Origin: a virus
Direction: 5' to 3' (one strand)
Length of the DNA: 64,000 bases
Virus record (IMG/VR): IMGVR_UViG_3300033516_000084
Location: 36,967-100,966 of that record
Part shown: positions 784 through 63,932 of the stretch, in pieces
Position numbering within the stretch: position 1 is the first letter of the stretch
Layout: every line of letters begins with the position of its first letter
Made by a program: the position numbers and the translations under genes
Notes under the pieces: model-generated
The model's database searches: none
Told to the model about the DNA's origin: nothing
The model's input: only the letters and a program-made list of their open reading frames with translations

Positions 784-1215
784 TTACCGGACAATGATCT
801 TTGTTGACCACCGTTGTACCCACAAGGCTTTATCTGGAAAACTGTCTGAATATCCCTCTGATAGGAACTCCCAAGGGTGTCCTGCGGGTGAACTTTTTCC
901 TTCTAGGGCAGTCCCCATTGCGTCCAATATATTGATGCCCGGTATCTCCTGCACCACGTTGTCGGATAAGGATGTACTGTCTATTGCCATGTACAGACCA
1001 AAGTGTGCGGTCTTGGACACAGCTCTTTTGGTGCCACCGGGCTCAGGATTCCCTGTCATTCCCTCGTACACTATGCCTACTTGAGGCCCTTTTGCCCCTT
1101 TTATCATCCGTACCAGTTTCTCTGGGGTGTAGACAATATGGGCCCTACCCTTTAGCTCTGCAATTGATTGCAGGGACTCCGTAATGTGCTGTAGGCACTG
1201 TTCAATTTTGGGCAC
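784..1215 (-). CDS. putative tail terminator / tail completion protein
   Basis: Sits between the virion morphogenesis gene and the major tail gene. Probable start is GTG 1215, overlapping the upstream stop; the ORF-track extension to 1365 overlaps the neighbour. Confidence 0.55.
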   Translation of the reverse strand: MPKIEQCLQHITESLQSIAELKGRAHIVYTPEKLVRMIKGAKGPQVGIVYEGMTGNPEPGGTKRAVSKTAHFGLYMAIDSTSLSDNVVQEIPGINILDAMGTALEGKSSPAGHPWEFLSEGYSDSFPDKALWVQRWSTKIIVR

Positions 1216-1669
1216 TGATAATCTCCTGTACTTTCTTCTCAAAAATAGATAAAGCCATCGAAGCGTGTTCGGGGGTAATTGCCAAGAACTCCCGTTTAAC
1301 CATCCCATCGGTGCCAAGGTTGTGCTTATTGGCGTAAGGCACATCTGTAAAGATACTGGCCTCACCCAAGTTAGGCAAGGTGGCTAGCTGTATTGACCTG
1401 AACAACCTGCCACTGTCAAACAGAGTACCTGTACCACCACGTTTCCTGCGGGCAATACCAGACCTACTGGGAATCCAAGGGGCACCAGCCGGGTCTTGCT
1501 CTGCCAAGTACGTGGTACGTAGGCGGTTAAGGATAGCCGCTGTGGAAGCTGCCATCTCCCTATCGAACAGCTTATTCAGGTCCCCATCTAGGCCCCCAAA
1601 TAAACTGCCTTCTTTACCTGCTATGGTAAAGGTGATAGGGCCATCACTGGCCTTAGTAAGGTTGATCAC
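1202..1669 (-). CDS. phage virion morphogenesis protein (Mu gpG / P2 gpS-like)
   Basis: Motifs QDPAGAPWIPS, LFDSGRLFRSI, TDVPYANKHNLG and REFLAI match this family; neck-region context. Confidence 0.8.
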   Translation of the reverse strand: MINLTKASDGPITFTIAGKEGSLFGGLDGDLNKLFDREMAASTAAILNRLRTTYLAEQDPAGAPWIPSRSGIARRKRGGTGTLFDSGRLFRSIQLATLPNLGEASIFTDVPYANKHNLGTDGMVKREFLAITPEHASMALSIFEKKVQEIISAQN

Positions 1670-2256
1670 AGTGCGGCCTGAGAGTGTACAAAGGGCCGGA
1701 AAGAAAAGTCTGACACCTTGCGGTAAGAAGCGGCCATAGCCAAAGCCAATTCATTAACCCCCGGCGCGGGGGCAGGTGCCGACTTGTCGGGTTGGTTCTC
1801 GGCAAAGATAAGGGCAGTGTACACCAGTAACGCCTGTCTAATGGTGTCCGGTACTTCCTTGGGGTCGATACCTGACTCATAGACGATGGTCAGGTACTTG
1901 TTGTCTAGGTCCAGCGGGAAGTACACTGTGCCCTGCTCACCATCAACCAGCACAGGCTTTACCTTGGTGCTTACCCCGCCCACGGCATCGGCGTAGGTGG
2001 CGCGTACAGAGGATGGACTCACAAACAGGTTTGCCAGCTTCACCTTCAACATACCGTGGGGTACTACCCCCGAGTACAAGTCTGAGTTGAGGTGTACCAC
2101 GTCGATACACGAAAACTGCTCTATAGAACACCCTAGGTCTGCACCTAGTTTGTTCTGAGCCTTTTTGATCGTACTGGTGATGGTATCTGATAGGTCGGTC
2201 TTCAGATGGGATGCAAGCCCCATAGAGGCAATTACTTCATCCACAGTTATCAGCAT
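1666..2256 (-). CDS. putative head-tail adaptor/connector
   Basis: N-terminal MLITVDEV, C-terminal YESG...VPDTIRQALL pattern; lies two to three genes downstream of the capsid gene. Confidence 0.6.
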   Translation of the reverse strand: MLITVDEVIASMGLASHLKTDLSDTITSTIKKAQNKLGADLGCSIEQFSCIDVVHLNSDLYSGVVPHGMLKVKLANLFVSPSSVRATYADAVGGVSTKVKPVLVDGEQGTVYFPLDLDNKYLTIVYESGIDPKEVPDTIRQALLVYTALIFAENQPDKSAPAPAPGVNELALAMAASYRKVSDFSFRPFVHSQAAL

Positions 2257-2269
2257 ACCATTCTCCAGA

Positions 2270-2677
2270 TTACACCACTATGGCAACTTCTTTGACCTCG
2301 TTGTCCGCATCAGCTTGCGCTAGGCGGGCAGTAATCTCCGGGTCATCATCACCTAGTTCAAGCCTACCAACCGGGGTTACCTTTCGGGTATCACCACTGT
2401 CAATCATAGGAGACTTGACTTGGCGCATGGCCACGGTCTGGAGTTCTTGGGGGATTTGAACTAGCTTGGTACGGGGTTTAGCCAGACCGAACACGGGGAC
2501 TCCCTGGGGGTCAACCTGCGACAGTACTACCTTGGCCGACTCGGCATCAAACACGTACACCACGCCTTTTTCATACAACATACCGTTGTACATATAGCGT
2601 TTGACCTTGAACATCTCCAAGTTAACGTCCGTGGCCTTAGCTTTTACGGGCGATTCTACTTTAGTGGTTACAGCCAT
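2270..2677 (-). CDS. hypothetical protein (head module)
   Basis: 135 aa ORF with GGAG RBS between the capsid and adaptor genes. Confidence 0.6.
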   Translation of the reverse strand: MAVTTKVESPVKAKATDVNLEMFKVKRYMYNGMLYEKGVVYVFDAESAKVVLSQVDPQGVPVFGLAKPRTKLVQIPQELQTVAMRQVKSPMIDSGDTRKVTPVGRLELGDDDPEITARLAQADADNEVKEVAIVV

Positions 2678-2786
2678 TTAATACTCCTGTGGGTGAAAGA
2701 CTTAGAGTGTACACCAGTATCGGGTACTGCAATTGATTGCGCTCAAAATAAGGGCAAGCCCCAAGTGTACCGGGCTTATCCACACC

Positions 2787-6720: not shown

Positions 6721-6784
6721 ACTGCCTCCTAGATTGAATACGCAACTGATTGCACTGGTCGCAGCAACCTCTTTTTTTCACGCC

Positions 6785-6895: not shown

Positions 6896-7300
6896 CTAAG
6901 AAAAGCTGGCGTAAGAATGGGTACCTGTGCTAGCTCTACGCTCAGGCTCTTTGCTCTCAGCCCCGCTGCTGCCTAGTCGGGCATAGGATTGACTACTGCC
7001 ACCTTTGGCTGGTTTTTGTAGGTACTTAGAAAATCCACCAAATTGTTTTTTGGGTGGACCTTCTTTGTCACCCAACCGGGCGTAGGAGTGGGTAGCCTGT
7101 TTACCAGCACCTCCCATATTATGGGGGCCCTCGGCGTTGTCATTACCCACTGGGGCCCCTACGGGGTTACGTTTGAACAAGGCAGCTACTTGGGGCTTAT
7201 GCATACTGAGGACTCCGGGTGGCGGCGTGCAATTGATTGCACAGGTCTTCGACTCTGAATATCTTAGAAAATCCGGTGAAAGGTTTCTTTGATTTACCAA
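6896..7300 (-). CDS. hypothetical basic, Gly-rich protein (possible internal head protein)
   Basis: Internal repeat THSYARLG / SQSYARLG / THSYASF; start uncertain, possibly MHKPQ near 7204. Confidence 0.45.
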   Translation of the reverse strand: MVNQRNLSPDFLRYSESKTCAINCTPPPGVLSMHKPQVAALFKRNPVGAPVGNDNAEGPHNMGGAGKQATHSYARLGDKEGPPKKQFGGFSKYLQKPAKGGSSQSYARLGSSGAESKEPERRASTGTHSYASFS

Positions 7301-7666: not shown

Positions 7667-8329
7667 CTAGTTAACAAGACGACTAGCGGATGCTAGGTTA
7701 GCGGTTATGGAGTTCTCCACCGATGGGTAGTCTATAGCCTCTTGATGCGCCTGCATAGCGTGTTCGTGGGCAGACTTCTTAACCCCTACCGCAAACTCTG
7801 AGGCTATCCTGTGGATATTGGTCATCTGCTGGTGGTAGGGTTCACCATTCATACCCGGCAGGTTGAAGGGGTTATGTTTACCATCTTCGGCCTTGGTGAT
7901 ACGGGTGTCTCCGGTGAACACCGGGTGGTACAACTGAGAGGATTGTTTTTTGGGGGCAGCGCGGATATGCAACTCCATACTGGCGCAGTATGCCTCCTCC
8001 TCATACTTCTGTACTTTGAACGAGGTTGGGTTAGCGCGGGCTAGGGCGATACTTGACTCCTTGATGGCAGCAAGTCGGTCATTAGACTCGTCTCGCATCT
8101 TAGCCACCAACTGGGTTCTCGGGTCTTCGGACTTCAGCTCGCGCTGGTGAGTCTGCTCTTCCATCGCACTACGCTGTATAGAGTCCTGGTGGGCGGTGGT
8201 TACCAATGGTTTTGTCTTGGTTTTATCGGCTTTGAATACGCGAGTCACGTCTGCATTAAACATCTTTGGTTCTTCCGTGAAATTGATTGCACAGGCAGGG
8301 CCGGTGGTACCCTGGTATTTTACATACAC
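7667..8329 (-). CDS. hypothetical protein (possible internal head protein)
   Basis: ORF in the head operon with RVFKAD, KVQKY, RITKAE and GVKKSA sites. Confidence 0.55.
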   Translation of the reverse strand: MYVKYQGTTGPACAINFTEEPKMFNADVTRVFKADKTKTKPLVTTAHQDSIQRSAMEEQTHQRELKSEDPRTQLVAKMRDESNDRLAAIKESSIALARANPTSFKVQKYEEEAYCASMELHIRAAPKKQSSQLYHPVFTGDTRITKAEDGKHNPFNLPGMNGEPYHQQMTNIHRIASEFAVGVKKSAHEHAMQAHQEAIDYPSVENSITANLASASRLVN

Positions 8330-8338
8330 CTTTGGGTA

Positions 8339-11239
8339 TCACGATAGCCCTGTTTCGTCAAAATAATAAATACCTTCATACCGTACACCATTAAGCAGTA
8401 AGTCCAAGGTATTTTTAGACAAACCAATACTGCCAAGTTGTTTGATAGAGGATGGATTTACTGACAAAGTGACAGCCATGATCGCCGCCTCTTGCGCTGC
8501 TGTCAGCCTGCCTTTGGGTATGGATACCATGCCCGTGAGTAGGTCAGCCTGTACCTTGGCCCAATCACCGGCTTCTGGTACAAACCCTGCCATACTAAGC
8601 TCTACGGCGTTACCCGCTTGTACCTTTGCCGTGGCGTAGGCCGCACCCATACTGGGGTGTAGTTTTTTCAGCGTCTCCCACTCACCGGTAGTCAGCATAG
8701 TGGCTACCAACTCAGGGTGTAGCTCCATCCCACCTGTGCCAGTTCTAAACAAGAACCCCTTTTCTTTGGACTCACCCCATGCAAAGGCTATGTTATTACC
8801 ACGGGTCACCCTGATCATCCCAGTTGCTGCGCCAAGTAAGGACGTTATCTTTGCACCGGTAAGGGACGATAGCAAGGTAACCGGGTCTACTCCGATGTAT
8901 GAGTTCCACAGAGACAACTGGCGTGGGGTAACACCTATGCCCAGGTCAGTAAAGGTTGTTTTAGTAGCAGTAAAGTCCGGTAGCACTTGGTTGACAGGCT
9001 TTGGCTTGGGGGCTTCCACAGGGTTTACCTGAGTGAGACCAGTAGCAGGGTTTACCGTTACCTCTACCGGGCGAATACTTGGCGGCGGTGGGGTTTGAGG
9101 CACGGTATTAACAGACGGTACCAAGGCCGTGGGTGTTGCGCTAGGTTTGGGCTTTTCCAACCTGCCTACGTGATCTAGCCTAACCATCAGCGTTCGGCAG
9201 TTTGACCCCCAGCTAATACGACCATTGTGGTTTATGAGCAGGGTGTGGTTCTTTTCAAGAGTGACATCATACACAACCCCATCGTATTCACGAACCTGCA
9301 ATTGATTGCACTTCTTAAATACGGTAGTCCCATCCCCCACTACCCAGTTATCGTGATTACACGCATACAACCCATTACCATGCTGGGTGTAAGTCCCTTT
9401 TGCAGAGCCTAATCTAATTGAGGGAGTATGTCCTAGTCTTATCAGTAACTCGCACAAGTCATCTCGCATACGAATAGACGAGGTAAAAAACACCCGTTCT
9501 GTGCTTTTATAGCCCAAAAACTTAGAGCCAGTCTCCCTAACGTGCCCATCCCCCAAGGCATAGGCTGCTAAGAACACGTCTATCAATTCTGGGCTTAAAT
9601 TCTTAATAAATTGTGGCACAAACTTCTGGTGAGATTTGCCGTACTGAAGGCACACTGCCCCGATATAGGTATCAGATACCACTATCTTGTGTCCGTATTT
9701 GCTTTCGTGCTTTCGTGCCTTTGGACACAATCTAAGCACATCCATAAACATCTTGTTTGCGTGTTTTGTTTGCGATATGACAGGGTAGTACGTGCCATTC
9801 ACGTGAGGCTGTACGCTACCTTCCGATAGGTAGTAACCTAAGAACTTCAACAAGGATGGGGTATCCCTTTCACTCCCGGCAAACATAATTGACTGTGGCG
9901 ATTCCCCTTTGTGTTTTGAGGATGTGTATAGTCTATTTTCTACTTTGTTGGATAGGAATCCAGGTATGCCTCCGAACATTAGTTCAGTGCTTCTGCCAGC
10001 CTTACCATGGTCCACCCTTCTACCCCAAAACATTTGATGGTCTGGGGTTACCTCTAAACTAGCATCACCCCGTTTGTTGTAGAACTTAAAAACGTCCCCC
10101 TTATGAACATAGGCTATGTTCTTCACAGCGGATACCCATTCAAGCTGGTGAGTGTTTGGATTCAATGACAAAAACTTGTCTACAGCTATGTCCACATCCT
10201 TAAAGTCTATAAACCCTCTTGAGGTGTAGACCTGTGTCCCTTCAACATAGCATCCGGGGTGGAAGGGTGGTGTCCCCAGACCCTTATCCTGTAGCTGCTG
10301 GGGGGTCATACGTTCATAGGCTTCCATGCTAGGTGTACTTTGATCTGGCCACGGGTGGATGGTCTTCAAGTCGTTGGGGTCATCAACGTACACCGCAGAG
10401 TCTAGGATTCTTTTGGCACTGTCTATGGTAAACACCTTTCCATGTACCAGCCTACAAAATCGTGAGGTCCTGTTATCTAGCTGTGCGCTTAGTTTGTAGG
10501 TCTTGTGTCCCCGCATCTCAGACTCGGCCACAAAACCCCATCCTGATAACCGGCTGGTGTGCAGGTTACTGATCATCTGGGCCATTGAATTGCTGTCGTC
10601 TTTGAATGGTACGAACAGTCTAATGGGGTCTGCCTTAGATAGGTTCGATACAGCTTTGGTTACAAGTAAGCCGTGCTTCCTAGCATTGGACTCAGACTCT
10701 GCGTCCATCGACACAGGAATTGATTCCACTCCTTGGTCTCTAAGCCACGCATAGCGGTGTCTTCCGTTCGAGAAACCCACCTCACCGTTGGCATCCACTC
10801 CAACATAAGGAGCTTCCATGTTGTCGTGGGGCTTTACCGTGAACGAGGTCTTATCATCAAACGGTTCCTGCCCACCATTGATGTACCTGCCAAACCGCTC
10901 GTACCGGTCTTTGATCTGACCATCACCATTTGGGCCGATGTAAAAATCCTTTGACTCGGAAAACTTGCGGTCAAACGCTGGAACCTTGAGGTGTACCAGC
11001 GGGTGGCCCATTACTGGGTCTACTCTTACCTGTTTGCCAGCTACATCAACGTATTGATTGCCTTGGAAAGGGTGGCCTTCTGCTTCTTTCTTTACAGAGG
11101 TTGCCATCCCATAGCGTACCTCTCCATCTTCAAAAACAAGGCGTACCATTTCATAGTCGTCCTTCTTGGCGGGTGTACCGTCTTTATTCAAATACTGAGC
11201 AATAGCTGCACGGCCCTCTATCTCCACATCTTCTATCAT
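8339..11239 (-). CDS. MuF/gp7-like head morphogenesis polyprotein with a ParB-like domain and an intein
   Basis: LDNRTSRFCRLVHGKVF and PPFHPG|CR (MuF); NGRHRYAWLRDQGVESIPV (ParB/Srx-like); GHPFQGNQY tag. Confidence 0.85.
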   Translation of the reverse strand: MIEDVEIEGRAAIAQYLNKDGTPAKKDDYEMVRLVFEDGEVRYGMATSVKKEAEGHPFQGNQYVDVAGKQVRVDPVMGHPLVHLKVPAFDRKFSESKDFYIGPNGDGQIKDRYERFGRYINGGQEPFDDKTSFTVKPHDNMEAPYVGVDANGEVGFSNGRHRYAWLRDQGVESIPVSMDAESESNARKHGLLVTKAVSNLSKADPIRLFVPFKDDSNSMAQMISNLHTSRLSGWGFVAESEMRGHKTYKLSAQLDNRTSRFCRLVHGKVFTIDSAKRILDSAVYVDDPNDLKTIHPWPDQSTPSMEAYERMTPQQLQDKGLGTPPFHPGCYVEGTQVYTSRGFIDFKDVDIAVDKFLSLNPNTHQLEWVSAVKNIAYVHKGDVFKFYNKRGDASLEVTPDHQMFWGRRVDHGKAGRSTELMFGGIPGFLSNKVENRLYTSSKHKGESPQSIMFAGSERDTPSLLKFLGYYLSEGSVQPHVNGTYYPVISQTKHANKMFMDVLRLCPKARKHESKYGHKIVVSDTYIGAVCLQYGKSHQKFVPQFIKNLSPELIDVFLAAYALGDGHVRETGSKFLGYKSTERVFFTSSIRMRDDLCELLIRLGHTPSIRLGSAKGTYTQHGNGLYACNHDNWVVGDGTTVFKKCNQLQVREYDGVVYDVTLEKNHTLLINHNGRISWGSNCRTLMVRLDHVGRLEKPKPSATPTALVPSVNTVPQTPPPPSIRPVEVTVNPATGLTQVNPVEAPKPKPVNQVLPDFTATKTTFTDLGIGVTPRQLSLWNSYIGVDPVTLLSSLTGAKITSLLGAATGMIRVTRGNNIAFAWGESKEKGFLFRTGTGGMELHPELVATMLTTGEWETLKKLHPSMGAAYATAKVQAGNAVELSMAGFVPEAGDWAKVQADLLTGMVSIPKGRLTAAQEAAIMAVTLSVNPSSIKQLGSIGLSKNTLDLLLNGVRYEGIYYFDETGLS
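9200..10252 (-). mobile_element. intein (LAGLIDADG) in the MuF PPFHPxCR motif
   Basis: Begins CYVEGTQVYT; block B VTPDH; LAGLIDADG motifs FLGYYLSEGS and LAAYALGDG; ends WGSN followed by Cys; 351 aa. Confidence 0.9.
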
Positions 11240-12477
11240 GCTTTTGGCCCCTGTACATAGCTGGTGTTTAGCTTGTCATACAAATCCTGCCACTCTTTAC
11301 CCAGCCCTTTACGGGCAACAGGTCCTAAGGTTGCCATCTCTGCTAGAGTCTCGTTTATGGCATGTATGATATGTCTAGAGTTTGTTTCAGAAGACTTCCA
11401 CCACTCTCGACTATAAGCAGTAACCCCATCCGACACCTTTAAGGTCTCGTAGTTTACAGCAAATTGATCAGTAAAATCTGTGTCCATTTGAGCCACCCTG
11501 AACTTGTGGTGGGTGAACTCATGTTGCAATACCTGAGCTATAGCCGTTGGGTTATCCATTTTTGATGGGTACACGGTTATCCTGGGGGGAGAATCTTTAC
11601 TAGCTCGCGTATAGGAACCGCCATAGACCAAGCTCTTCCCATTCAGGTTAAACATTTTTGTTTCGTAGTCTGGCACCACCTCAATACCGTCAGGAATACC
11701 AAGAGTTTTAGCTACTGCTTTTACATAGCGCTCTATGCCTTCTTCAGAAGACATATCGTGGGAATGATGCGCCCATCCATACTCTGACACCGTACAACCG
11801 AGGGCTTTTCCCACAGGCCCTGCCCATTTTTCGGCATTTAGCTCAGGCTCCTCCAAAATGTCCTGCTTGTCCATGTCCGAGTACAGGGGGTTATCTGCTA
11901 CCTCTTTGTCATACCAATCCTTAAAGGCTTTTTTAACTAATCCGGGGTCTATCTTCGGGTAGGCATCAACCGCTTTTCTAGCCAACTCAGTAGGGGAGCC
12001 TTCAAACCCACCAATACCCCCTGTGTATTGATTTCCGTGAAAAGAATGACCCTTAGCCTCTTTTTGAATCTGAACTTGGGTACCAGCTTCTCTAGCTCGT
12101 GCAATTGATTGCAGTAGCTTGCGTTGGGTCTGTAACGTACCGTTGTACTGTAGGTACTGTCGTAAATGGCTTAAAGACTTATCCACCGTCTTATCCAATG
12201 GTAGGCTGGCTATCATACTGGCCCTACCTCCTGCCGCCATTGATGCCCCGTATTCTATGGCAGCTCTCATCAAAGCCCTAGAAAAACTCACTACAATCGA
12301 AAATACTGGCTCTAATGTAAAAGATTCTGCTGCCATGATCGCAAGATCAAAGTCATTATTTTTTAGATGTTTTGCATTGGTATTCCAAGCCTCGGATATA
12401 AGTGGATGTAGAGCACTCTGGAGTTTTTCAGACAACATACGTTCTATATCCAAAAAATCTTCTATTCGCGTAGTCAT
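11236..12477 (-). CDS. MuF N-terminal-like helical region fused to a zincin metallopeptidase-like domain
   Basis: HEFTH (HExxH) with downstream VTAYS and NETLAE; preceded by IQK-EAKGHSFHGNQY. Confidence 0.7.
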   Translation of the reverse strand: MTTRIEDFLDIERMLSEKLQSALHPLISEAWNTNAKHLKNNDFDLAIMAAESFTLEPVFSIVVSFSRALMRAAIEYGASMAAGGRASMIASLPLDKTVDKSLSHLRQYLQYNGTLQTQRKLLQSIARAREAGTQVQIQKEAKGHSFHGNQYTGGIGGFEGSPTELARKAVDAYPKIDPGLVKKAFKDWYDKEVADNPLYSDMDKQDILEEPELNAEKWAGPVGKALGCTVSEYGWAHHSHDMSSEEGIERYVKAVAKTLGIPDGIEVVPDYETKMFNLNGKSLVYGGSYTRASKDSPPRITVYPSKMDNPTAIAQVLQHEFTHHKFRVAQMDTDFTDQFAVNYETLKVSDGVTAYSREWWKSSETNSRHIIHAINETLAEMATLGPVARKGLGKEWQDLYDKLNTSYVQGPKA

Positions 12478-16098: not shown

Positions 16099-16352
16099 AG
16101 CATAGTCCTGTTGGGGTATGGGTAGATTCTACTATGCATACACCTACCTGCTACCACAGTAATTCTGTACGTCTTCTAGCTTGCTGTGATAGGCGCATTT
16201 TCAACTTTCACCCACTTCGCTGCCCTACAGTGGATTACATACTGGCAACATGCACTTGTCGAACTCTTTGAAAGATGGCTACTTCTAGGCCTACTTCCTG
16301 AGTTATCAAAACTTTTGAGAATATATTTTCAGCCTACTGCAATTGATTGCAG

Positions 16353-16568: not shown

Positions 16569-16644
16569 AAATTTCTCCTTAATGTGACATCCTACCACAT
16601 CGGAATTGATTTGTCAAGCCTTTTTTACACAAATTTCGTGTAAA

Positions 16645-18927: not shown

Positions 18928-18973
18928 CTACGCCCAGGCAGCTAGACCCTTGTCAGTGCAATTGATTGCACGC

Positions 18974-24087: not shown

Positions 24088-24155
24088 ATTCAATCCTTCT
24101 AGGGTTGTGCAATTGATTGCAGCCCATTTTGTGGGCCGCGAGTAGGGTAGTGAGG

Positions 24156-25202: not shown

Positions 25203-25633
25203 TTTCAGTCCTTTGAAAGTTTGGGGGGGGTAAGCGGCTTTTTAGGGCCTGGGGTAATTATATATCAGTTTGCCAAGGTTTTAACTGATTTTGAAAATAT
25301 ATTTTCACTTCTTCTGGCTGGCGGCATCCTCTCCTCAAGGGTGTTGCATGGTGCAATTAATTGCACTCGTCCACACCCAAAATGCGTGGGTATTCTCCAC
25401 CAAAACGTGGCTGTGTTCTGGTTTTCAGTGCTTAAAAATTAGGCAGAAAACACGGGGTTTTGACTTCCAGTGCTACGGCTTGCATAGCACTAATTGAAGC
25501 GCACCCAAATCGCGTTGGGGGCAGCAGGTGGCAGTCGGTGGGAGATATTAGGACAGGTGCTTATTTTTTTGTGTGCCGGGCTTGTACACCCCTTGCCAGT
25601 GCAATTAATTGCAGTTGGCAAGTGCAATTAATT

Positions 25634-48084: not shown

Positions 48085-48349
48085 ATACTTTCCTGGCGTG
48101 GTGTTGATAAGCCTGTAGTATAACCGAGTTTGACAAGGTTTACAGGCTTTTTTGAAAATATATTTGTGCAATTGATTGCACTCCGTTGCAACCCCACTTA
48201 GATGCCTACTACCATGTCGTCTGGGTTGATCAAAACCCTGGCCCCGGTAGACAGTACGGTGGCTTGGTCTTCGTCATCCTTCACCATAATCTCGTCTTGG
48301 TCGGGTAGGTAGAATTTGTCTCCTACCTCCAGCAGGTAGAACTTTAGGT

Positions 48350-52050: not shown

Positions 52051-52272
52051 CTAGTGCAATTGATTGCGCGGCTTCACCGGTTGCGGGGTTACCATCAACT
52101 GCACAAGGTCCTCGGCAATACCGTTTTTACGCATTTGCTCTGCGGAGGCTGCGCGGTGCTTAGTATCCTCAACATCCTCGGCCAACAGCGACTGTAGCAA
52201 CGTGCTGTTTCTCCCACCCACGTTCATAGAGTCCTTCTCCTTAGGCCGCATCTTGTCTCGTCCTGTAGTCAT
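52051..52272 (-). CDS. small hypothetical protein
   Basis: Class I promoter and AAGGA RBS. Confidence 0.5.
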   Translation of the reverse strand: MTTGRDKMRPKEKDSMNVGGRNSTLLQSLLAEDVEDTKHRAASAEQMRKNGIAEDLVQLMVTPQPVKPRNQLH

Positions 52273-52320: not shown

Positions 52321-55161
52321 TCAAGGGGTTTTTGCCTTTTTTGTTGTCAGGTAATCCCTTAGTTGTTTGGCAGAATCCACGTCTGAAAAGTGGTGGGTGG
52401 CGTTCCAGTTGCCTCCTGACATAGCCGTTTTCACGAAAGTCATAGGTATGTTGTCCGGTATCCTTGGGTCCTTGGAGTCCTTGTACGTGTGCCCAAAGTG
52501 GTCATCTAAGTTAGGCGTGGGCAGGTTGGCAAGTTGGGTGGCCATGTGCTTATCATCAGAGGACAGTATGGCGTGTAGGGCATCCCGCTCTTTCATTGCC
52601 TCCTTGGACAACGGCACTCGGTCTTCTCTAGGGATACCCTCATTTGCCTTCTTTATTATCCGGGACATACCATCCTCTACGCTCTTGCGTACCGGGTATA
52701 GGTCGTCCGGGGTGAACCCAAACTTACTCCAGGCATAGGCACCAGCCTCTAGGTTAGCGTGTACGGTAATGGCTTTTAGCCCCATCTTCTTGTACAAGGG
52801 CAGGGAGTTTGTAAACAACGCTTTTGCGGTTCCTTTGTTCCCCTCACCATCTTCCATCTGTAGAAAGGTGTGGTCAATTGATTGCATGTCCTTGGACAGG
52901 CAACGCTCTACCCACCCAACTTTAGAGCCATGCACCTCACCTGTACCCGCGAATGAAACCCGTCCCTTTAGATGCTCGTAGCCCACACCACCGGTATGCT
53001 CTTCAATGGAGGCTCCTACGATCTTCCCATCAGCGTATTCGTTCTCCCCCCAAATAGCTTTCACCATCTCCACTGGGTCTACCCGGCCCATTGTTTTTGC
53101 GTGAAAATCCTCGGCGGTGTACCCGGATGATATACCTTTGTCACTTAGCTCCTTTAACTTGGCACGAACATGGTCTACTGTGTGCGTCGGTATATCCTTA
53201 CCATCATAGGTCTTGTTTGGGTCAGAACCTATGACCTCCCCCGTAAGCCCTGTGCCGTTGGCTTTATGCTTGCTGGCATTCTGGTTGCCTAAGGGCGCAC
53301 CTTTGAATACGGATGCAGATACATCTAAGTGTGCGTCTTTTCTAACCCAACCTGGCGGTTCAAAAAGCTCCCCAGTCTCACCATCCACATACCGCCCATC
53401 AGCAGTTTTGGATGAGCCCTCTGGTGGCCTCCAACGCCCTCTGGGGGCCTTAGGCTCGTCAAAGAACTCACTAGACTCTTTATCGTACTTAGTCTTAGCC
53501 TGCTCAACCACATCCAATACCACGCGATCTTCGGACACGCTACGCACTTTCAGCTTACCCGGTGGTAGTAAGACTTCGTGCTCTGACTCATCCCTACCCT
53601 CATCATAATCTGGGTCATTACGGTGATGGGAATACAAATCCATGCTTATGGCCTTAGAGCCCTTTGGTAAATGAATCTCTAACAGGGGTGCCTTTCTACC
53701 ATCAGAGTCCCCACCAATCTCACGATAGCCCTCTCCAACTTTTTTATCCACAGTCGTAGACCACGGCCCTTTTAGCTCAAAGGGGTCTCCAGGCTTTGCA
53801 TTAGCCCACTGAGTATCGTCAGCCCCCACACCCCTAAAAAGAACCTGATTAGCCTTGGTAGGTAAGACGTTATGGAACGCACCTAGTAACCTGTCTGAAA
53901 TCCTAGCATTTTCAGAATTACCAGCATTTCCCATTACCTGAGAATATGAACGGAGGGCCTGTGCCTGGCCGGGTGGTAGGGGCACTGCCTTACCAGTAAC
54001 TGGGTGGATTGTTAATCCACTTACAGCACTAGGGATGTGGTATTTGTCCTTATTCTTTCTAGCATTCTGGTTACCTAGTGGGGCACCTTTGAACAAGTTT
54101 ACCCAACCACCATGTTTCAATACCTTGGATGGCTTGTTATGGTTTAGTAGTTCTACTTCCAGAACAGTTTGTTTCTGTTCACCAGCCAGTGGGTGTATAA
54201 ACGTGCGTTCTTTGGCACCAACAACTTTGTACTCTCTATCTCTTGGGAGTAAAAACTCTTGCTCTCCCGGATGATCTGATCGGTTATCACCCCCACCTAA
54301 CCACGCCCCCGTAGTACCTTTGGGGGCGCGTATTTCCATCACTACTCTACCTGATGACGAATAGCTTTTAGCCTCTCTTAGGGAGGGGGAAGTTGACCCA
54401 AAGGCTGGGTCTGAGAAGGTCTTACCTACTAGTGAAGACAGCTCTTCAATACTAGAACTTTTACCATATCTTTTTGTGTCACCCAAAAGCCTGCTTACAT
54501 CCGAGGCGCGATATAGAGTCCCACCCTCTGGTAACGACATTTTTTCTAATGCAGAGTCGAGGGTCTTTACCTGGGCGTGTATAGCTGGGGACTCTCCAAC
54601 TCTACCCTCTCCTATAGCCTCGTTCATAGCCTCATGCTGAGAGCCCGTGTAATCACTTACAGATTTTTTCTCTGAATCAGATAAACTACCCCACATATCT
54701 TGGGTAGCGTCTGACATACGTGCGCTATGGTCTAAAATAGCTTTAGGAGACTGCTCTAGTATAGGGATAGAGGTAGCACTAGAACCCCCTCCAGAAGCCC
54801 TTTTATTCCCAATGGAGCCGGGCCTGCGGGCAAAGGCGTGACCACCCACTGCGTTTTTATTTCCTAGAGGGGCACCTTTGAACACCGATGCCATACCGGC
54901 AATTGATTTCACCCGTGGTTTTGGGTGTATCAGCCCAGTCTTGTTGTCTAGGTAGAGGATGCCCCCATCACCCTTTATCGGCGTGCGGTGGTCTTCGTCC
55001 CCGGACAATATGCTGTCGGGTATCCCTTTTGGGAACGCTTCGCAGGTCAAGCCATTATTCCAGTGTCCACAGGTGTGGCAGGGTAGAGCAGGTAGCTCTA
55101 TTCCGCTAGTGTCATCCATCCTACTGCGTAGGTCGTTGTATGTCGGTTTAGTAGTCATCAT
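52321..55161 (-). CDS. effector polyprotein: Cys domain, two VIP2-like ADP-ribosyltransferases and a GNAT-like domain
   Basis: CHTC..CEAFPKGIP..DH; ART1 LYR...GSTS...EQEFLLPR; ART2 LFRG...WSTT...EHEVLLP; GNAT-like HTFLQM...GTAK...GAYAWSKFGF; each module preceded by FK-GAPLGN.NA. Confidence 0.8.
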   Translation of the reverse strand: MMTTKPTYNDLRSRMDDTSGIELPALPCHTCGHWNNGLTCEAFPKGIPDSILSGDEDHRTPIKGDGGILYLDNKTGLIHPKPRVKSIAGMASVFKGAPLGNKNAVGGHAFARRPGSIGNKRASGGGSSATSIPILEQSPKAILDHSARMSDATQDMWGSLSDSEKKSVSDYTGSQHEAMNEAIGEGRVGESPAIHAQVKTLDSALEKMSLPEGGTLYRASDVSRLLGDTKRYGKSSSIEELSSLVGKTFSDPAFGSTSPSLREAKSYSSSGRVVMEIRAPKGTTGAWLGGGDNRSDHPGEQEFLLPRDREYKVVGAKERTFIHPLAGEQKQTVLEVELLNHNKPSKVLKHGGWVNLFKGAPLGNQNARKNKDKYHIPSAVSGLTIHPVTGKAVPLPPGQAQALRSYSQVMGNAGNSENARISDRLLGAFHNVLPTKANQVLFRGVGADDTQWANAKPGDPFELKGPWSTTVDKKVGEGYREIGGDSDGRKAPLLEIHLPKGSKAISMDLYSHHRNDPDYDEGRDESEHEVLLPPGKLKVRSVSEDRVVLDVVEQAKTKYDKESSEFFDEPKAPRGRWRPPEGSSKTADGRYVDGETGELFEPPGWVRKDAHLDVSASVFKGAPLGNQNASKHKANGTGLTGEVIGSDPNKTYDGKDIPTHTVDHVRAKLKELSDKGISSGYTAEDFHAKTMGRVDPVEMVKAIWGENEYADGKIVGASIEEHTGGVGYEHLKGRVSFAGTGEVHGSKVGWVERCLSKDMQSIDHTFLQMEDGEGNKGTAKALFTNSLPLYKKMGLKAITVHANLEAGAYAWSKFGFTPDDLYPVRKSVEDGMSRIIKKANEGIPREDRVPLSKEAMKERDALHAILSSDDKHMATQLANLPTPNLDDHFGHTYKDSKDPRIPDNIPMTFVKTAMSGGNWNATHHFSDVDSAKQLRDYLTTKKAKTP

Positions 55162-56624
55162 TTTGCCCTCTTCTTTTTAATAGCGGTTGTCTTAATGGTA
55201 AGCCTACCGCTTTCGTCTACACTAGCAGAGTCAACCCTGAAGTGTGTACCACGATCTATTATAACCTCCCGCTCATCGGGCTTTCTGGCGTATTTATCGT
55301 CATCTACTAGAGGGGGGATAGGTTTATAGTACCCCTTCCATTCTTTATCGGTCTCCTCGCGTGGAGGTTCTAAGGTTCCTACATAAGCTACCTTATGCCC
55401 CTTAGGAACAGTTATCTCCATCTGTAACTCTGCTATAGACCCGTTGGCATCGTCCCACATCTGTGCCGTGAGTTTGTTAGTAGTGGAGCTTGTAAATCCG
55501 GGGTCCTTCAATACTGAGCCTACCAGTTTTCCATTTTCATGCAAGGATTTCATTTCATGATGTAGCTCCCACCCATTAACACCTCGAAATACCTTTAAGG
55601 GGGAGGATACTGGAGACATGGCCTTATCTAATGACTCTACTATAGACTTTGCCCTGTCGTCCCATTGGGGTTTACCAAGGGTCGTCCCTGGTTTCCTCAA
55701 CGAGGTATTCACCCCATAATACTCGTTGTCGGTATAGGCTTTAACATTTGCCCTATCTACCTCGTTTAAGCTGTCCAAGTGGGCGCGGCTTTTGGATACT
55801 ATATTGAAAACTGGCCTACCTTCCTCAGTGGGGCCCCACTCACTTACCTCACCCCAGGCGCTGGTATGTACCGCCTTATCTTTGGAGGTGAACTGTCCAC
55901 CCTTTCCATGATAGGGGTTGGCCTTAAATACGGAGGTGAACCCTTCGTAGTACTGGGCTATGGATTCCAATATATACAGCCCTTCTGACTTTTTTACCTC
56001 AGGGTCATCCGGGGTGTCGGATGCTAACAACCATGACAAGTCCAATATGAGTTTCTTTTTAGGTGGCTGGTCAGACAGTAGACCGGCTACGGCCAAGTCG
56101 GGGGCTTGTATATCGTCTTTGGCTAGTGCAATTGATTGCAGGTTCTCAGACTTTTCCACCACCTTACCAACATAGTCCTCATTTACCGGCTCATAGATTT
56201 CAGGCCCGAACATCAGTGGGCCGGTGTAGGGCTGTATGGTCGTCAGATCGACCTCAGAGCCCTTGTAGGTGATGGTGACATGGGATTGGTACTCCGGGTA
56301 GTCCCAGCTCGCTCCAGCGGCCTCCCATTGGTCATGGCGGTCTTGCAGGGCCTTACTACTGAACTTCAAGACAACCGCTGTATCACCCAAGGGGGATACC
56401 TCACGTACTGCTGGAATATCGGACACGTTGTCAACAACTAGATTGTTGGTATCCGGGGCTAGGGTGTCCCACGCCACGGGTGTCCTACTATACACCACGG
56501 TCACATGTAATTCGGAAATTTCTAGAACTCTTGGAAAACCCTGTGCCTTTGCCCAGTCAGTAAACTCCTGAGAGTTTACAAGTTTTCTCTGAACGTACAG
56601 GGTGGATATGTTTGGCGTGATCAT
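55158..56624 (-). CDS. Acb1-like 2H phosphoesterase fused to a VIP2-like ADP-ribosyltransferase
   Basis: Two HxT motifs (LHVTVVYSR, SHVTITY) with FGPE; VFK-ANPYHGKGGQF; VFRG...GFTSST...EREVIIDRG. Confidence 0.8.
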   Translation of the reverse strand: MITPNISTLYVQRKLVNSQEFTDWAKAQGFPRVLEISELHVTVVYSRTPVAWDTLAPDTNNLVVDNVSDIPAVREVSPLGDTAVVLKFSSKALQDRHDQWEAAGASWDYPEYQSHVTITYKGSEVDLTTIQPYTGPLMFGPEIYEPVNEDYVGKVVEKSENLQSIALAKDDIQAPDLAVAGLLSDQPPKKKLILDLSWLLASDTPDDPEVKKSEGLYILESIAQYYEGFTSVFKANPYHGKGGQFTSKDKAVHTSAWGEVSEWGPTEEGRPVFNIVSKSRAHLDSLNEVDRANVKAYTDNEYYGVNTSLRKPGTTLGKPQWDDRAKSIVESLDKAMSPVSSPLKVFRGVNGWELHHEMKSLHENGKLVGSVLKDPGFTSSTTNKLTAQMWDDANGSIAELQMEITVPKGHKVAYVGTLEPPREETDKEWKGYYKPIPPLVDDDKYARKPDEREVIIDRGTHFRVDSASVDESGRLTIKTTAIKKKRAK

Positions 56625-57206: not shown

Positions 57207-57727
57207 GGTAATCCTTGGTGGTGGGTACTGTACCAGTCTGCAATTGATTGCAGTCCAGATTTTGACAGGGTGTCTAATAGGTTTTGGGTTCCTTCACTCA
57301 ACTTTATCTTCTGCTTGGCCCACAAGCTGGACAATGCCTCGGCTGTAAGGAACCCACTCGGGAATACCGTAGACAGGAGGCCCACGGTCACCTGGGCATC
57401 GGCGTTGGTAAGCTGCCAATACCTGAGGGCGTAAATATACATCACTAGGTCACCAGGGGTGCTAGCCAGACAACACAAAAATATCTTGGCGGGTGTAGAC
57501 AGGTTTAGCCCGACAAACTCAGCACGTTTATCAAGCACCTTGTATGTGAAGGTGTCCCGAATCGCCTCCAACAGGTCTTCTATACCCTTGGTGTTGTCGA
57601 CCAACTCCAGCATCATCACCGTAACAAACACCCGGCTTTGGGTGTCTGACATGGGCCTTGACTCTGCCTTAAAAAATGTGGCAGACCATTCTGCCCACAT
57701 AGTGCATCGCTCCTGTACGTCCATCAT
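57203..57727 (-). CDS. hypothetical protein
   Basis: Coupled ORF, 174 aa. Confidence 0.6.
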   Translation of the reverse strand: MMDVQERCTMWAEWSATFFKAESRPMSDTQSRVFVTVMMLELVDNTKGIEDLLEAIRDTFTYKVLDKRAEFVGLNLSTPAKIFLCCLASTPGDLVMYIYALRYWQLTNADAQVTVGLLSTVFPSGFLTAEALSSLWAKQKIKLSEGTQNLLDTLSKSGLQSIADWYSTHHQGLP

Positions 57728-58978: not shown

Positions 58979-59203
58979 TTATGCAATTGATTGCAGGTCT
59001 TCGCTGACCACTACCTTCAACTGTTGGGTGTCGCGGGCGAATAACCTGGCCGCACGTTCTGCATGTTCTACTGTAGGGTAGTCCATAAAGTGTTCCCACG
59101 GTTCCCAGTCTATCCTGTAAGATTTGTAGCACCCGTTGTAACAGCGGCTCTGTGGGTCAGTGTTGTGCAGTACGCCACGGCGTATGTGAACAGCTATTAT
59201 CAT
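58979..59203 (-). CDS. hypothetical protein
   Basis: NTDPQSRCYNGC; class II promoter and hairpin RBS. Confidence 0.65.
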   Translation of the reverse strand: MIIAVHIRRGVLHNTDPQSRCYNGCYKSYRIDWEPWEHFMDYPTVEHAERAARLFARDTQQLKVVVSEDLQSIA

Positions 59204-60367: not shown

Positions 60368-60509
60368 GTAAATACTCCATTAGTTATACCCCTAGCGCGG
60401 TGGCTTGCGTAAGCTATTGTACCCTAATACCATTCTATTTGTAAGAGTGCCCATAATTTTTATGCTACGGACACCCTATGCCTATGCACTTGGTGCAATT
60501 GATTGCACG

Positions 60510-60941: not shown

Positions 60942-61580
60942 CTAAACCACAATAACTAACTTTTTGCCTTGGGTAGGCTTCAACGTACACGCATCCTCTA
61001 CAGGCATCCCTAAAGACAGCCTATAGGTTAGGGCAGAATGCGATATACCCAACTTCTTAGCCCAATAAGATACAGGCTTTCGCACACCATTAACGGTACA
61101 AAAAACCGTATTCCTCTTATTAGAATCCTGCTCATCTTTTGTAGCCCACCTGCAATTGATTGCGCAGTAATTTCCGTTGTTGTCAATCCGATCAAGGGAG
61201 GTGCCTTCTGGTCGTAATCCCATGTCTTTGAAAAAGGCAGAAAATGACTGCCATTCCGCACACACGGTAATCCCCCTGCCACCATAGTGTCTGTAGGCTT
61301 GGTGCGCTGGGTCAACGCATCTAGCAACCATACTAGCCCACGAGTTAAATTCACGGGTATTGGTTTTACCGTGTAGAGTGTTTCTAAGCACCATAGCAGA
61401 AACCCTAGCACAACCACACGAAGTCGAACCACCTGTCCTCAGTGAACTGGTATTGACCTCTTTTGTAGTCCCACAATCACAGACACACAACCACTTAGAA
61501 GGTCTCGTGGGGGTATCGGTCTTAGACAACACAGTCCACATACCGTATCTGTTGCCTTCCAATCCAAGTACCCGTTTCAT
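60942..61580 (-). CDS. HNH homing endonuclease (same family as 35033-35692)
   Basis: WLCVCDCG, SCGC, WASM..RC, YGGRGITVC, LDRIDNNGNY..NCRWAT; GGAGG RBS. Confidence 0.88.
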   Translation of the reverse strand: MKRVLGLEGNRYGMWTVLSKTDTPTRPSKWLCVCDCGTTKEVNTSSLRTGGSTSCGCARVSAMVLRNTLHGKTNTREFNSWASMVARCVDPAHQAYRHYGGRGITVCAEWQSFSAFFKDMGLRPEGTSLDRIDNNGNYCAINCRWATKDEQDSNKRNTVFCTVNGVRKPVSYWAKKLGISHSALTYRLSLGMPVEDACTLKPTQGKKLVIVV

Positions 61581-61643
61581 AAAACCTCCTAAGTTAAGCA
61601 CTATTATAGCACAGATTGTTCAAAAATGTTCATTAGATACTCC

Positions 61644-63653
61644 TTAGTTAAAACGCACGTTATACGTCTTTTGCACTGATGTAGAGCTTTGCACCTGAAC
61701 GGTGATAACGTCCTTTCGGGTGCTGGAGAACCCCAAACCGCTCAACTGGTTTTCAACCATAGGGCATTTAGTCAAATTTGATAACTGCTCAAAAACTTTC
61801 CGGTGGGCATCCAACTTAGAGTTCAGGAACTCGTTATAAATCCCCCTTGCAGGTTCTGGATTACGACACCCCTCCAGTACAAAGAACCAGTGTTTGTTAC
61901 CAACGGCGTTGTCATCCCAGTAGTTCGGGCTGTACATCATCGTCTGCACCTTCACAAAGGTTTCGGTCTTGATACCCCACTCCACCTTTGACCGGCCTTC
62001 TTGCGTTAGCTCGGGGTGGGAAGTGCAGGACACCATTGCATTGTTTTTTACAGTGATTGTCAGCACATCTACTGTTCCTGTCACTGGTTTAGCGTACTTG
62101 TACTGGGTAGTAGCCCCGTCAAATTCAACCTCTAGGACAAACCCAATGTCAGCGGTTTCGCGGCGGTTGTATTGGTTGACGTACACCCGGTACACGCCAT
62201 CACTTAGGCTTACCCAACTAAGGTTCTCAACCGCCTCGCGGGTAGTCCCACCCCCGGCATTCATGTCCACATCCAAGACCGATCTTTTATTACCAAAGTA
62301 AATACGCTCACCATTAGGCGTATAGCACCCCAAATCCAGATCATCATAGTTGAACCACGCGAGAGACACCCGGAGTTTGGCGTTGGTCACATTGCCACCG
62401 GCATTCTTCACCTTCTCCTTGATAGAGTCAGTGATATTGCCGTTGTAACTCCAGCCAAAATCATTGTCCCATTTGAACAACTTCCCTGAATCAGGGTTTA
62501 CTGGCGCGGTAAGGCTTACCAAGTTAGGCAGGTACTTGCCCTGAACCAGCAAGCTCATGCCCTGGGCTTTGGGTACGACCTTGGACATGAAATCAACAAT
62601 ACCAATATCCTCGGACTTGCTGCTGGTGCGCCCGGTGGTGGTATCAACATGGGCCATCAACAGACCCTCTACCCCGCCCTTCATGTGGGACCTGACTGAG
62701 TTGTCCACCCACAGGACGTTGTTCACACTCACATCCCCGATAGTGGCTAACCGGCGTTCAAGGGCTGGCTCAAGTCCAAGCTCTGTGATGGTAGCCATAG
62801 CAGCCTTTACCATGCTCTGAGTGATCAAGGCAGTTGTACGCTTGTAATTTGTTGGGGCTACTTTGACCTCGAATGAGCGTACTGCGTGTTCTACACCAAT
62901 GCCTTCACTAAGGTCTTGCACCAGAGTACCGATCACGGTGTTACGGAAGTGCGCAGCTTGTCCAACAGCGCTTGTCCACACGTAGGTGTCACGCTCAGTG
63001 CCACCTTGTGGCAAGGTCAGGTACTGATTCTGCGCCTTCTGAAAAGTCACCACCGCTGCCCGGTGCTCTGCACCCCGGTAGATGGCATTGGAGTCAATCA
63101 ACTCCAGCACCTGTGCCACTGACGCTGGAGACAGCTCCTCCAGGCCACGCTTAAACACTTGGGCGGCTGTACGGAAATCGCCTCGCGCCTTGTCTACTTG
63201 ATTGGTCAGATGCCTACTAGCCACCTTACCATGAAAGTGGTTCCAGTTCATGATCGTACCACCTGCCAGTAACTGCTTGGTCTGCTCAGCCCCGTAGGAG
63301 GCCTCAGACGACCTGAATAGGTTGGTGATAGGCATTGATAGCACCAGTGCATCTAAGGCCGCTGCAACCCCATTGAATGGGTACTCTGCGCCCTTTACAC
63401 CCCACACCGATTGGAGCTTGCCGTTGACCACGGCCACCACGGTGCCGATGTTCCGCACGAAGTTCTTGCAGCAACTGCAATCATGCTCGGTACGGGTCTT
63501 GTAAATTGGATTTGTCCCCTCTGGGAACGACTGGAGGTATTTTTCCCACAGCAAGTCACCATCAACGGTAACGTAAAGTTCTTGCTTGGACATTTCCACG
63601 AACTTGGAATGTACAAGGCTTGCAAACGGCTTAAATTCTGACATAGGTTTCAT
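61644..63653 (-). CDS. conserved large phage protein with a YfaP/DUF2135-like domain
   Basis: EHDCSCCKNF; LRVSLAWFNYDDLDL...LDVDMNAG...AVEN; SPNYWD...GNKH.FF. Confidence 0.7.
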   Translation of the reverse strand: MKPMSEFKPFASLVHSKFVEMSKQELYVTVDGDLLWEKYLQSFPEGTNPIYKTRTEHDCSCCKNFVRNIGTVVAVVNGKLQSVWGVKGAEYPFNGVAAALDALVLSMPITNLFRSSEASYGAEQTKQLLAGGTIMNWNHFHGKVASRHLTNQVDKARGDFRTAAQVFKRGLEELSPASVAQVLELIDSNAIYRGAEHRAAVVTFQKAQNQYLTLPQGGTERDTYVWTSAVGQAAHFRNTVIGTLVQDLSEGIGVEHAVRSFEVKVAPTNYKRTTALITQSMVKAAMATITELGLEPALERRLATIGDVSVNNVLWVDNSVRSHMKGGVEGLLMAHVDTTTGRTSSKSEDIGIVDFMSKVVPKAQGMSLLVQGKYLPNLVSLTAPVNPDSGKLFKWDNDFGWSYNGNITDSIKEKVKNAGGNVTNAKLRVSLAWFNYDDLDLGCYTPNGERIYFGNKRSVLDVDMNAGGGTTREAVENLSWVSLSDGVYRVYVNQYNRRETADIGFVLEVEFDGATTQYKYAKPVTGTVDVLTITVKNNAMVSCTSHPELTQEGRSKVEWGIKTETFVKVQTMMYSPNYWDDNAVGNKHWFFVLEGCRNPEPARGIYNEFLNSKLDAHRKVFEQLSNLTKCPMVENQLSGLGFSSTRKDVITVQVQSSTSVQKTYNVRFN

Positions 63654-63695
63654 CCTAAAAAGTTGGTAACAACGCTAACGCTAGCCCCAAGTTGG

Positions 63696-63932
63696 CTACT
63701 TGGCACTCTCCTTATGAAATTGATTGCACAAGGACACGGCCTCTGCGACAGCCTTATCCACATTTATTTTTAGTTGGGCATAGAATGCCGGGTGTACCAA
63801 GCACTCGTACCCGGTCTTCAGGGTTTTTCTCTGGCCCACGGTCAACCCCAGCTTGAAGGTGCTGAAAATCCGCAGGGCCTCTTTAGTACACCCGGTGTTC
63901 AACAGGTGTAAGGCTTGTTCTGTTTTAGTCAT
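63696..63932 (-). CDS. hypothetical protein
   Basis: Class II promoter/leader at 63933-64000. Confidence 0.65.
   Translation of the reverse strand: MTKTEQALHLLNTGCTKEALRIFSTFKLGLTVGQRKTLKTGYECLVHPAFYAQLKINVDKAVAEAVSLCNQFHKESAK

Follow-up and report, generated by a model that had tools for sequence, protein, structure and literature searches.

An evenly spaced palindromic word in a large family of DLP5-like siphophages, a probable docking site for a phage-encoded dimer

Dispersed palindromes and oriented words

Words with dyad symmetry that are scattered over a phage genome have been described before: Cluster O mycobacteriophages carry 17-bp dyad repeats (TGTTCGGNNNCCGAACA) in more than 30 copies per genome, partly within genes and with unknown function, and the authors of that study predicted that they bind a dimeric protein and serve a process that is not the initiation of transcription (Cresawn et al. 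2015, PMC4351075). These repeats are the closest published case of the element described here, a 14-bp word that recurs throughout a 64,000-nucleotide stretch of viral DNA (the window), namely bases 36967-100966 of the 100,966-bp IMG/VR contig IMGVR_UViG_3300033516_000084, which is rated 66% complete. The contig is labelled G000 below, and other G and L labels denote the genomes and loci with which it was compared. The closest mechanistic model is KorB, a CTP-dependent sliding clamp with OB operators on the IncP plasmid RK2, which acts on promoters up to 1.5 kb away (PMC11790492). A third system is that of the stoperators, asymmetric and normally oriented sites at the borders of genes (summarised in PMC4351075).

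In the window, the word TGCAATTGATTGCA occurs in 15 exact copies, all on the plus strand, where dinucleotide shuffles give none. Since the minus strand carries nearly all of the contig's genes, the sense strand of the site reads TGCAATCAATTGCA. Its arms, TGCAAT and ATTGCA, are perfect inverted repeats, so that the asymmetry resides only in the central dinucleotide. With up to two mismatches there are 32 sites, that is, 29 oriented ones (all plus) and three symmetric ones with a TA centre, as compared to 0.57 in the shuffles. The first 13 nt are exact in 20 copies, of which the five beyond the 15 end in GCG. These numbers bear out the initial annotation of the window, which had listed about 32 copies, 20 of them exact over 13 nt, a largest gap of about 5.8 kb (we find 5826 bp, from 35254 to 41080) and use of all three reading frames. 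It had also reported that there is no reverse copy. That is correct for the window (29:0), but not for the remaining 37 kb of the contig, which hold both reverse copies, nor for the relatives, where 30-40% of the sites have the other orientation. Over the whole contig we count 21 forward copies and one reverse copy for the exact word, and 37 and two, respectively, with up to two mismatches. The sole exact reverse copy (contig position 10621, outside the window) forms, together with a forward copy at 11635, an inverted pair at the ends of a 369-aa gene (10600-11709).

The likeness to the Cluster O repeats consists in more than 30 genome-wide copies, invariant inverted arms, a variable centre and an asymmetry that is not tied to the direction of transcription; here, too, a dyad word is found throughout the genome, in and between genes, without a link to promoters or start codons. 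It is a likeness in kind only, since word and length differ, the phage group is unrelated and the hosts belong to another phylum. Furthermore, the present array is evenly spaced, is positionally conserved over 30-60% protein identity and recurs, with drift, in phages of several genera of Proteobacteria, whereas Cluster O sites are denser at one genome end. With KorB-OB, Noc-NBS and ParB-parS the word shares a similar length, palindromy and many dispersed, often intragenic sites, which in those systems are read by a dimer that acts at a distance. With 25-52 copies per genome, it is likewise a (near-)palindrome found at many places of its replicon, and most relatives encode an orphan protein with a fold like that of ParB, Noc and KorB. 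The differences are that this ParB-like gene is not in the contig and that its C-terminal domain is missing from four complete genomes that have the sites. RK2 (60 kb) has 12 OB sites, and the density of the present sites is several times higher.

The stoperators of Cluster A phages, which are read by gp71 in L5, resemble our sites in number and length (some 25-35 genome-wide copies of a 13-14-bp word), in the co-orientation of the G000 copies with transcription, and in belonging to temperate phages, some of them maintained as plasmids. On the other hand, the arms are palindromic here and not an asymmetric 13-bp site, the sites are mostly intragenic, and their orientation is free in most relatives. 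The strict, stoperator-like co-orientation that the initial annotation took as a rule is limited to the G000 lineage and one other (G015), while 16 relatives pool to 77:51. Finally, DNA uptake sequences (DUS/USS), Chi and KOPS are bacterial, non-palindromic words of 8-12 nt that occur within genes in all frames, are evenly spread and mark 'own' DNA for a machinery that handles DNA; Chi and KOPS are polar to replication. The present word is similarly short, over-represented, written into genes and evenly spread, but differs from the polar Chi and KOPS by its palindromic arms and by having both orientations in most relatives.

The pattern of the sites is one that organising or marking sites (KorB-OB, Noc-NBS, parS) typically show, unlike promoter operators. 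We therefore favour, with moderate confidence, the reading that the 14-mer is a two-fold symmetric duplex docking site, which a phage homodimer from the replication/recombination module reads all along the chromosome. The half-site would be TGCAAT, often widened to [G/C]TGCAAT, around a flexible pyrimidine-purine centre, and selection would maintain some 25-50 evenly spaced sites (one per 2-4 kb) in each ~95-kb genome of the DLP5-like siphophages. The likely job of the phage-encoded homodimer that would read them is to be loaded or anchored along the whole phage chromosome, in the way in which KorB, Noc and ParB use dispersed palindromes. Such a chromosome-wide role is suggested by sites that lie mostly within genes, at even spacing and conserved positions, and whose orientation is free in most lineages; regulation of single promoters is disfavoured. 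The process served may be replication, recombination, self-marking or silencing of the plasmid prophage.

Spacing, conservation and symmetry of the sites

Judged by the major capsid protein, the nearest isolates are the Stenotrophomonas phages DLP5, DLP3 and Summit (61% identity, ~96 kb), followed by Rhodobacter phage RcZahn (55%), Rhizobium phage RHph_TM16 (49%) and VHS1-like Vibrio phages (~49%). A megablast search against phage records gave no match for the phage DNA. The exact word recurs several times in each of many IMG/VR contigs. At no more than one mismatch, ten records (of which five have a length of 93-98 kb) contain 8-52 copies each, and the whole sequences of four of these ten are syntenic relatives with 30-55% amino-acid identity and a GC content of 47-62%. 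The array of sites, which we call the lattice, is also found in the cultured phages DLP5 (36 copies), RcZahn (~15), RHph_TM16 (TM16) and VHS1.

In the phage under study the sites follow each other every 2-3 kb or so, within and between genes. The regularity of this spacing had been raised as a question by the initial annotation, and the gaps are indeed more even than in a Poisson process: their coefficient of variation (CV) is 0.67-0.69, as compared to 0.98 for random positions (P ~0.005). Over six genomes, the CV is 0.47-0.69 (P <= 0.005 in each), and it is also low in G010, G013, G017p, RcZahn and TM16.

Remoter relatives have drifted words with the same architecture and a spacing that is mostly as even. 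For example, the word of RcZahn is TGCA-RTYRAY-TGCA (28 occurrences of TGCA-N6-TGCA, where 1.9 are expected), that of TM16 is TGCAACATATTGCA, written also TGCAACATATT[G/T]CA, and VHS1 has 15 copies of the half-site TTGCAATTAA. We further see CGCAAT..ATTGCG (CGCAATCAATTGCG) in G022, TGA[TA]CT-YR-AG[AT]TCA in G023 and GGCAAT..ATTGCC (GGCAATCAATTGCC) at locus L354. Judged from these sequences, the lattice is ancient and a trait of the large family of ~95-kb DLP5-like siphophages.

Two metagenome-assembled genomes (MAGs) contain such phages. In G016, all 18 of the 18 motif hits fall on a 96-kb phage contig, and in G017, 21 of 25 hits fall on the phage contig, by which a motif of the host genome is rejected and the view of the initial annotation, that this is a phage system and not a host site, is supported. 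Two other MAGs also carry a palindrome: the 6.5-Mb genome of a Reyranella sp. (G018) has ~30 copies of the perfect palindrome TGCAATCGATTGCA, with a CG centre, over many contigs (chance ~0.05), and a Reyranellaceae MAG (G019) has ~7. These may be the site of a host regulator, or may be linked to resident prophages.

Although enriched three- to six-fold between genes and at their ends, the sites are intragenic in half to three quarters of the cases. In 109 of the 214 pairs of a site and an orthologue (28-60% identity), the site is retained at the aligned position. Over 56 pairs of such conserved sites, identity amounts to 99.4% in the arms (12 bases) and to 42% in the flanks (60 bases), and the central dinucleotide often flips between CA and TG. 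The centres that we observed (TG/CA, TA and CG) always form a pyrimidine-purine step. Were the site a hairpin in RNA or single-stranded DNA, compensatory changes would be expected in the arms; we find the arms invariant, and variants such as TGCAATCAACTGCA weaken the stem. Selection thus acts on the DNA word, and not on a peptide, a paralogous repeat or a compensated hairpin, which agrees with the DNA-level signal that the initial annotation had proposed. Arms that stay fixed while the centre flips point to a symmetric two-fold duplex site with a flexible pyrimidine-purine centre.

We expressed orientation as the ratio of CA to TG centres on the sense strand. An expectation of about 3:2 follows from the coding constraint, because one orientation puts TGA in frame; this orientation is absent from that frame, and the most frequent frame reads LQ[S/L]IA. 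None of DLP5 (23:11; all genes on plus), G006 (27:18), G007 (33:17), G012 (33:19) and 16 further loci pooled (77:51) departs from this expectation. Strong polarity is seen solely in G000 (37:2) and G015 (38:5), with P < 1e-4 for both. Since nearly all genes of G000 lie on one strand, orientation is inseparable there from transcription or genome polarity. The near-perfect co-orientation in G000 is a lineage-specific overlay, partly caused by the in-frame TGA.

The polarity of these two genomes, with their co-directional genes, would fit a stoperator-like polar silencing, in which an immunity repressor on the sites blocks elongating RNA polymerase one way and shuts a plasmid prophage. The enrichment in intergenic DNA and at gene ends speaks for it as well, and DLP5 and DLP3 are temperate, DLP5 being maintained as a phagemid (PMC5834331, PMC7326821). 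We consider it unlikely, since the arms are palindromic, the centre flips at conserved positions between relatives, the 16 pooled relatives have the ratio that coding constraint alone gives, and at least half of the sites are intragenic. In addition, no repressor gene tracks the motif, and a winged helix-turn-helix (wHTH) protein that could be considered for this role is missing from G013, G021 and G010.

Candidate readers and remaining alternatives

The initial annotation had proposed that a dimeric phage protein binds the sites, perhaps for silencing, segregation, protection or stepwise ejection, and had named two candidates. The palindromic arms and the flipping pyrimidine-purine centre fit a dimer, but the strict co-orientation does not, and both candidates fail. 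The first, the wHTH protein at 44024-44443, is composed of a Zn ribbon and a winged helix (pLDDT 82; Fur-, PadR- and MarR-like matches) with a conserved recognition helix, and occurs in six motif-bearing genomes. As a general reader it was rejected: neither the complete G013 (22 exact sites) nor G021 (40 exact sites) encodes it, the syntenic slot is empty in G010, and G016p, G017p, RcZahn, TM16 and VHS1 lack it as well. No relatives of this protein were found in 185,579 species genomes. The second, a ParB-like domain at 8339, has a PFIN match below threshold only, and ParB_N has no match anywhere in the 101-kb contig (66% complete); the ParB-like nuclease C-terminal domain of the MuF protein of DLP5 is not shared.

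Two genomes with shuffled modules narrow the search. What G021 and G022 have in common with DLP5 is limited to replication and recombination genes, a few sugar genes and a ParB-like gene, and both keep the lattice; G021, with its 40 exact sites, is without the DLP5-type capsid, portal, terminase, PPDK/ThyX cluster and wHTH. Structural proteins, TerL and the proteins of the PPDK/ThyX cluster are thereby excluded as readers. Since the lattice travels with the replication/recombination module, its reader is presumably encoded in that module, and would then lie in the third or so of the genome that the contig lacks.

Among the proteins of this module without known function, we picked phrog_17202 (DLP05_067 in DLP5), which has a homologue in every complete or near-complete genome that we examined, among them the remote G013 and VHS1 (in G023, as two pieces). 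Its segment RKAxYL is invariant in all genomes with the TGCAAT half-site, down to 27% identity, and altered in TM16, G023 and G016p. In a wider set of loci, C is the majority outer base of the half-site only where x is D or E; for example, x is E in G022, where the word is CGCAAT. A homodimer model of phrog_17202 reaches an ipSAE of 0.81, as compared to 0.00 for the best control, with at least 52% of contacts agreeing between runs and a pLDDT of at least 70. In our calibration, 20 of 30 proteins known as pairs from solved structures reached this mark, and so did one of 23 solved as single chains. We infer that phrog_17202 is the best candidate reader, followed by DLP05_107, an orphan ParB-like protein encoded beside the terminase of DLP5, whose fold resembles that of ParB, Noc and KorB (Foldseek E 5e-9 to 1e-7). 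A protein of this type is encoded by most relatives and, in 80 IMG/VR loci, accompanies palindromes of the TGCA type or others.

Several observations weigh against a symmetric dimer in general and against these candidates in particular. The polarity in G000 (37:2 in the contig, 29:0 in the window) goes beyond what a symmetric reader would produce; intergenic sites are biased as well (65:20 over six genomes), and the CGCAAT variant in G000 is confined to the 5' arm in sense (6:0). The latter two show that some directional factor exists. As for phrog_17202, a lead of 0.83 to DUF3102 and ParB-HTH clusters in an atlas comparison is the sole basis for a DNA-binding fold, and the protein has no Pfam or PDB sequence match and no profile similarity to the ParB family (hhalign). 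The covariation of segment and word rests on about two independent lineages and does not hold throughout: the half-site differs in L363, L386 and L366, which retain RKAMYL, and in L347 x is D and the outer base is mostly T. Moreover, the loci were gathered by a scan that searched for the peptides RKAxYL and GWTK themselves. The C-terminal domain of the DLP05_107 type is absent from the complete genomes of G012, G013, G015 and VHS1. The first three have other ParB_N proteins, some of them fused to a methyltransferase, and in VHS1 no ParB_N protein was found with the family profile. Neither phrog_17202 nor a DLP05_107-type protein was found on the contig studied, which is 66% complete.

The module with which the lattice travels, DnaB/DnaG/PolA/RecA and not the structural one, would also suit a signal for replication on single strands, that is, a hairpin or a single-stranded word on the lagging-strand template that starts primers or loads helicase, with a spacing of about one Okazaki fragment. 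Both the 2-3 kb spacing and the strict strand polarity of G000 and G015 are in line with it. We regard it as improbable to about the same degree as polar silencing, as the stem has just 5 bp (4 bp in variants of the RcZahn type) and an invariant sequence instead of compensatory changes, and as most relatives have both orientations on one strand. Furthermore, known primases of the DnaG type read trinucleotides.

Another possibility is that the sites are nicked, cleaved or recombined, be it as nicks like those of T5 or as hotspots for the phage RecA, RusA, RuvC or exonuclease, possibly helping co-infecting relatives to exchange modules. Diverged relatives have the same word at homologous positions, often at gene borders, G021, G022 and DLP5 are mosaics of modules, and genes for a ligase, recombinases and many HNH nucleases are found in the family. 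However, no nuclease tracks the motif, the assemblies show no breaks at the sites, and many conserved sites lie in the middle of genes, away from module borders, so that we find this explanation quite unlikely.

The consensus sites of sigma-54, FNR, IHF, Fis and LacI-type regulators do not fit the word. A conserved host protein that the phages recruit is very unlikely as the reader: the exact word in the remote G013, with variants in the nearer TM16 and RcZahn, does indicate that the word does not simply follow the core phylogeny, and the CA form contains AATCAA, the core of the IHF consensus, but the TTR part of that consensus is unmatched, the word is missing from the remainder of two MAGs with such phage contigs, the hosts span Stenotrophomonas, Rhodobacter, Rhizobium and Vibrio at phage GC contents of 47-62%, and the drift of the word between phages fits a phage-encoded reader.

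Sites and genes of the window, and implications

Among the products encoded in the window, PolA and the portal, MuF-like and AAA proteins contain inteins; further genes code for a ThyX-like enzyme, a PPDK-like dikinase, a dual-specificity phosphatase, ADP-ribosyltransferases, an Acb1 domain and several HNH nucleases. No Rfam families and no tRNAs were found in the window. All oriented sites below are on the plus strand. Exact copies within or at the ends of coding sequences (CDS) are found at 1159..1172 (CDS 784-1365, minus strand, sense TGCAATCAATTGCA, peptide LQSIA; position conserved in the orthologues of G006, G007, G012 and DLP5), at 7228..7241 (31 nt ahead of the end of CDS 7197-7658), at 9297..9310 (LAGLIDADG intein region of the MuF-like gene 8339-11239), at 12100..12113 (CDS 11236-12477, the N-terminal part of the MuF-like protein; conserved in G012, G015 and DLP5 and, with a flipped centre, in G006 and G007), at 35254..35267 (HNH part of the last PolA intein, peptide YSAINCRWAT), at 41080..41093 (ThyX-like gene 40686-41444, with the same codon position held in G006, G015 and DLP5), at 56127..56140 (CDS 55158-56624) and at 57239..57252 (36 nt ahead of the end of CDS 57203-57727). 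Intergenic exact copies lie at 16338..16351 (in sense, just upstream of a promoter-like AAATATATTCTC element), 18957..18970 (3 nt past the stop of the upstream gene), 24108..24121 (14 nt ahead of a gene start), 58982..58995 (28 nt ahead of a gene start) and 60494..60507 (2 nt past a stop codon). Two further exact copies, at 29445..29458 and 48167..48180, adjoin early-promoter elements.

With one mismatch, we find intergenic sites at 2728..2741 (ending in GCG) and 27680..27693, and further sites at 8278..8291 (near the start of CDS 7667-8329), 27216..27229 (TGCAATTGGTTGCA, followed in sense by a terminator-like hairpin and a T run), 34095..34108 (1 nt past the stop of the PolA gene), 45425..45438 (PPDK-like gene 44495-46417), 52055..52068 (at a gene end), 61151..61164 (HNH endonuclease gene 60942-61601, peptide YCAINCRWAT) and 63715..63728 (near the end of CDS 63696-63938). 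Sites with two mismatches are located at 6741..6754, 15146..15159 (portal gene 13150-16098), 32159..32172 (at a gene end, beside a promoter-like stretch), and 52873..52886 and 54898..54911 (both in CDS 52321-55161). The sites with a TA centre, to which no strand applies, are two copies of TGCAATTAATTGCA at 25352..25365 and 25600..25613 and one with a single arm mismatch (TGCAATTAATTTCA) at 25623..25636. The segment 24001-28000, to which all three belong, has a positive GC skew (+0.17), few long open reading frames and the densest promoters, and is without a tRNA or Rfam match.

As the initial annotation had pointed out, mobile passengers have copies too. One lies in the Pol intein (35254), one in the intein part of the MuF-like gene (9297) and one in an HNH gene (61151), the first and the last being paralogous (YSAINCRWAT and YCAINCRWAT, respectively). 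The inteins are distributed as follows: PolA (34110-39164) has an intein with HINT and HNH/NUMOD4 and another one ahead of the polymerase domain, the portal (13150-16098) and MuF-like (8339-11239) genes have LAGLIDADG inteins, and the AAA ATPase (30033-32084) has an intein with HNH.

A promoter-like module with the minus strand as sense is present in 19 copies within 16328-33561 and at 48165. It consists of AAATATATTTTC (itself palindromic), ~20 nt, AACCTTGACAAACTG and then TATAAT or TATACT, and mostly precedes small genes within 19.6-33.6 kb, which is probably the early region. A link between the 14-mer and this promoter family was rejected, as just three of the 19 promoters adjoin a site.

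A gene cluster at 40686-46417 is conserved in most relatives examined, including VHS1. It comprises a PPDK_N/PEP-utiliser dikinase, the wHTH, a CsrA-like protein of 86 aa (43255-43515, MALSIGV...FEA...I.R), a small protein with [HW][EA][RN]GNRR[FY], a dual-specificity phosphatase, phrog_20946 and the ThyX-like enzyme; in this phage, an HNH gene (43527-44054) is inserted. The cluster is probably a pathway of DNA hypermodification, because DLP3 DNA is resistant to 15 restriction enzymes (PMC7326821). Two neighbouring ADP-ribosyltransferase genes of the exoenzyme type lie at 52321-56624, the second fused to an anti-CBASS Acb1 domain. Outside the window, contig positions 17214-34751 hold one open frame of 5845 aa in the tail region, and related proteins in relatives are far shorter (1321 aa in G006). 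Finally, the 669-aa phrog_1735 protein (61644-63653) is ~50% identical to proteins of Zuri-like Pseudomonas, ViI-like, DSS3_VP1 and Microcoleus phages. The 14-mer was not found in phages picked via this protein, the Microcoleus phage included, because the phrog_1735 gene is shared far outside the DLP5-like family.

In summary, every letter of the word is retained at identical codon positions, in proteins down to 30% identity and over dozens of lineages, and so its function is important enough to constrain coding genome-wide. We found no paper that describes the word or its variants in such a role, and the papers on DLP3, DLP5 and RcZahn are silent on it. As a tentative extension of the docking-site reading, the lattice may be read by a new family of dimeric DNA-binding proteins (phrog_17202), whose recognition residues would co-evolve with the word, and may mark or organise the chromosome for replication, recombination or the discrimination of own DNA. 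If this is true, phages would have an equivalent of the KorB, Noc or uptake-sequence systems whose reader is not a ParB, and other phage groups with sister palindromes would share it. The cultured and tractable members of the family (DLP5, RcZahn, RHph_TM16 and VHS1) make reader and phenotype accessible to standard experiments, and the natural variants of the word are a ready-made specificity series. For phage engineering (DLP3 has been proposed for therapy), recoding of genes may destroy functional sites. More generally, the lattice bears on how the genomes of large phages are organised or recognised as 'self'.

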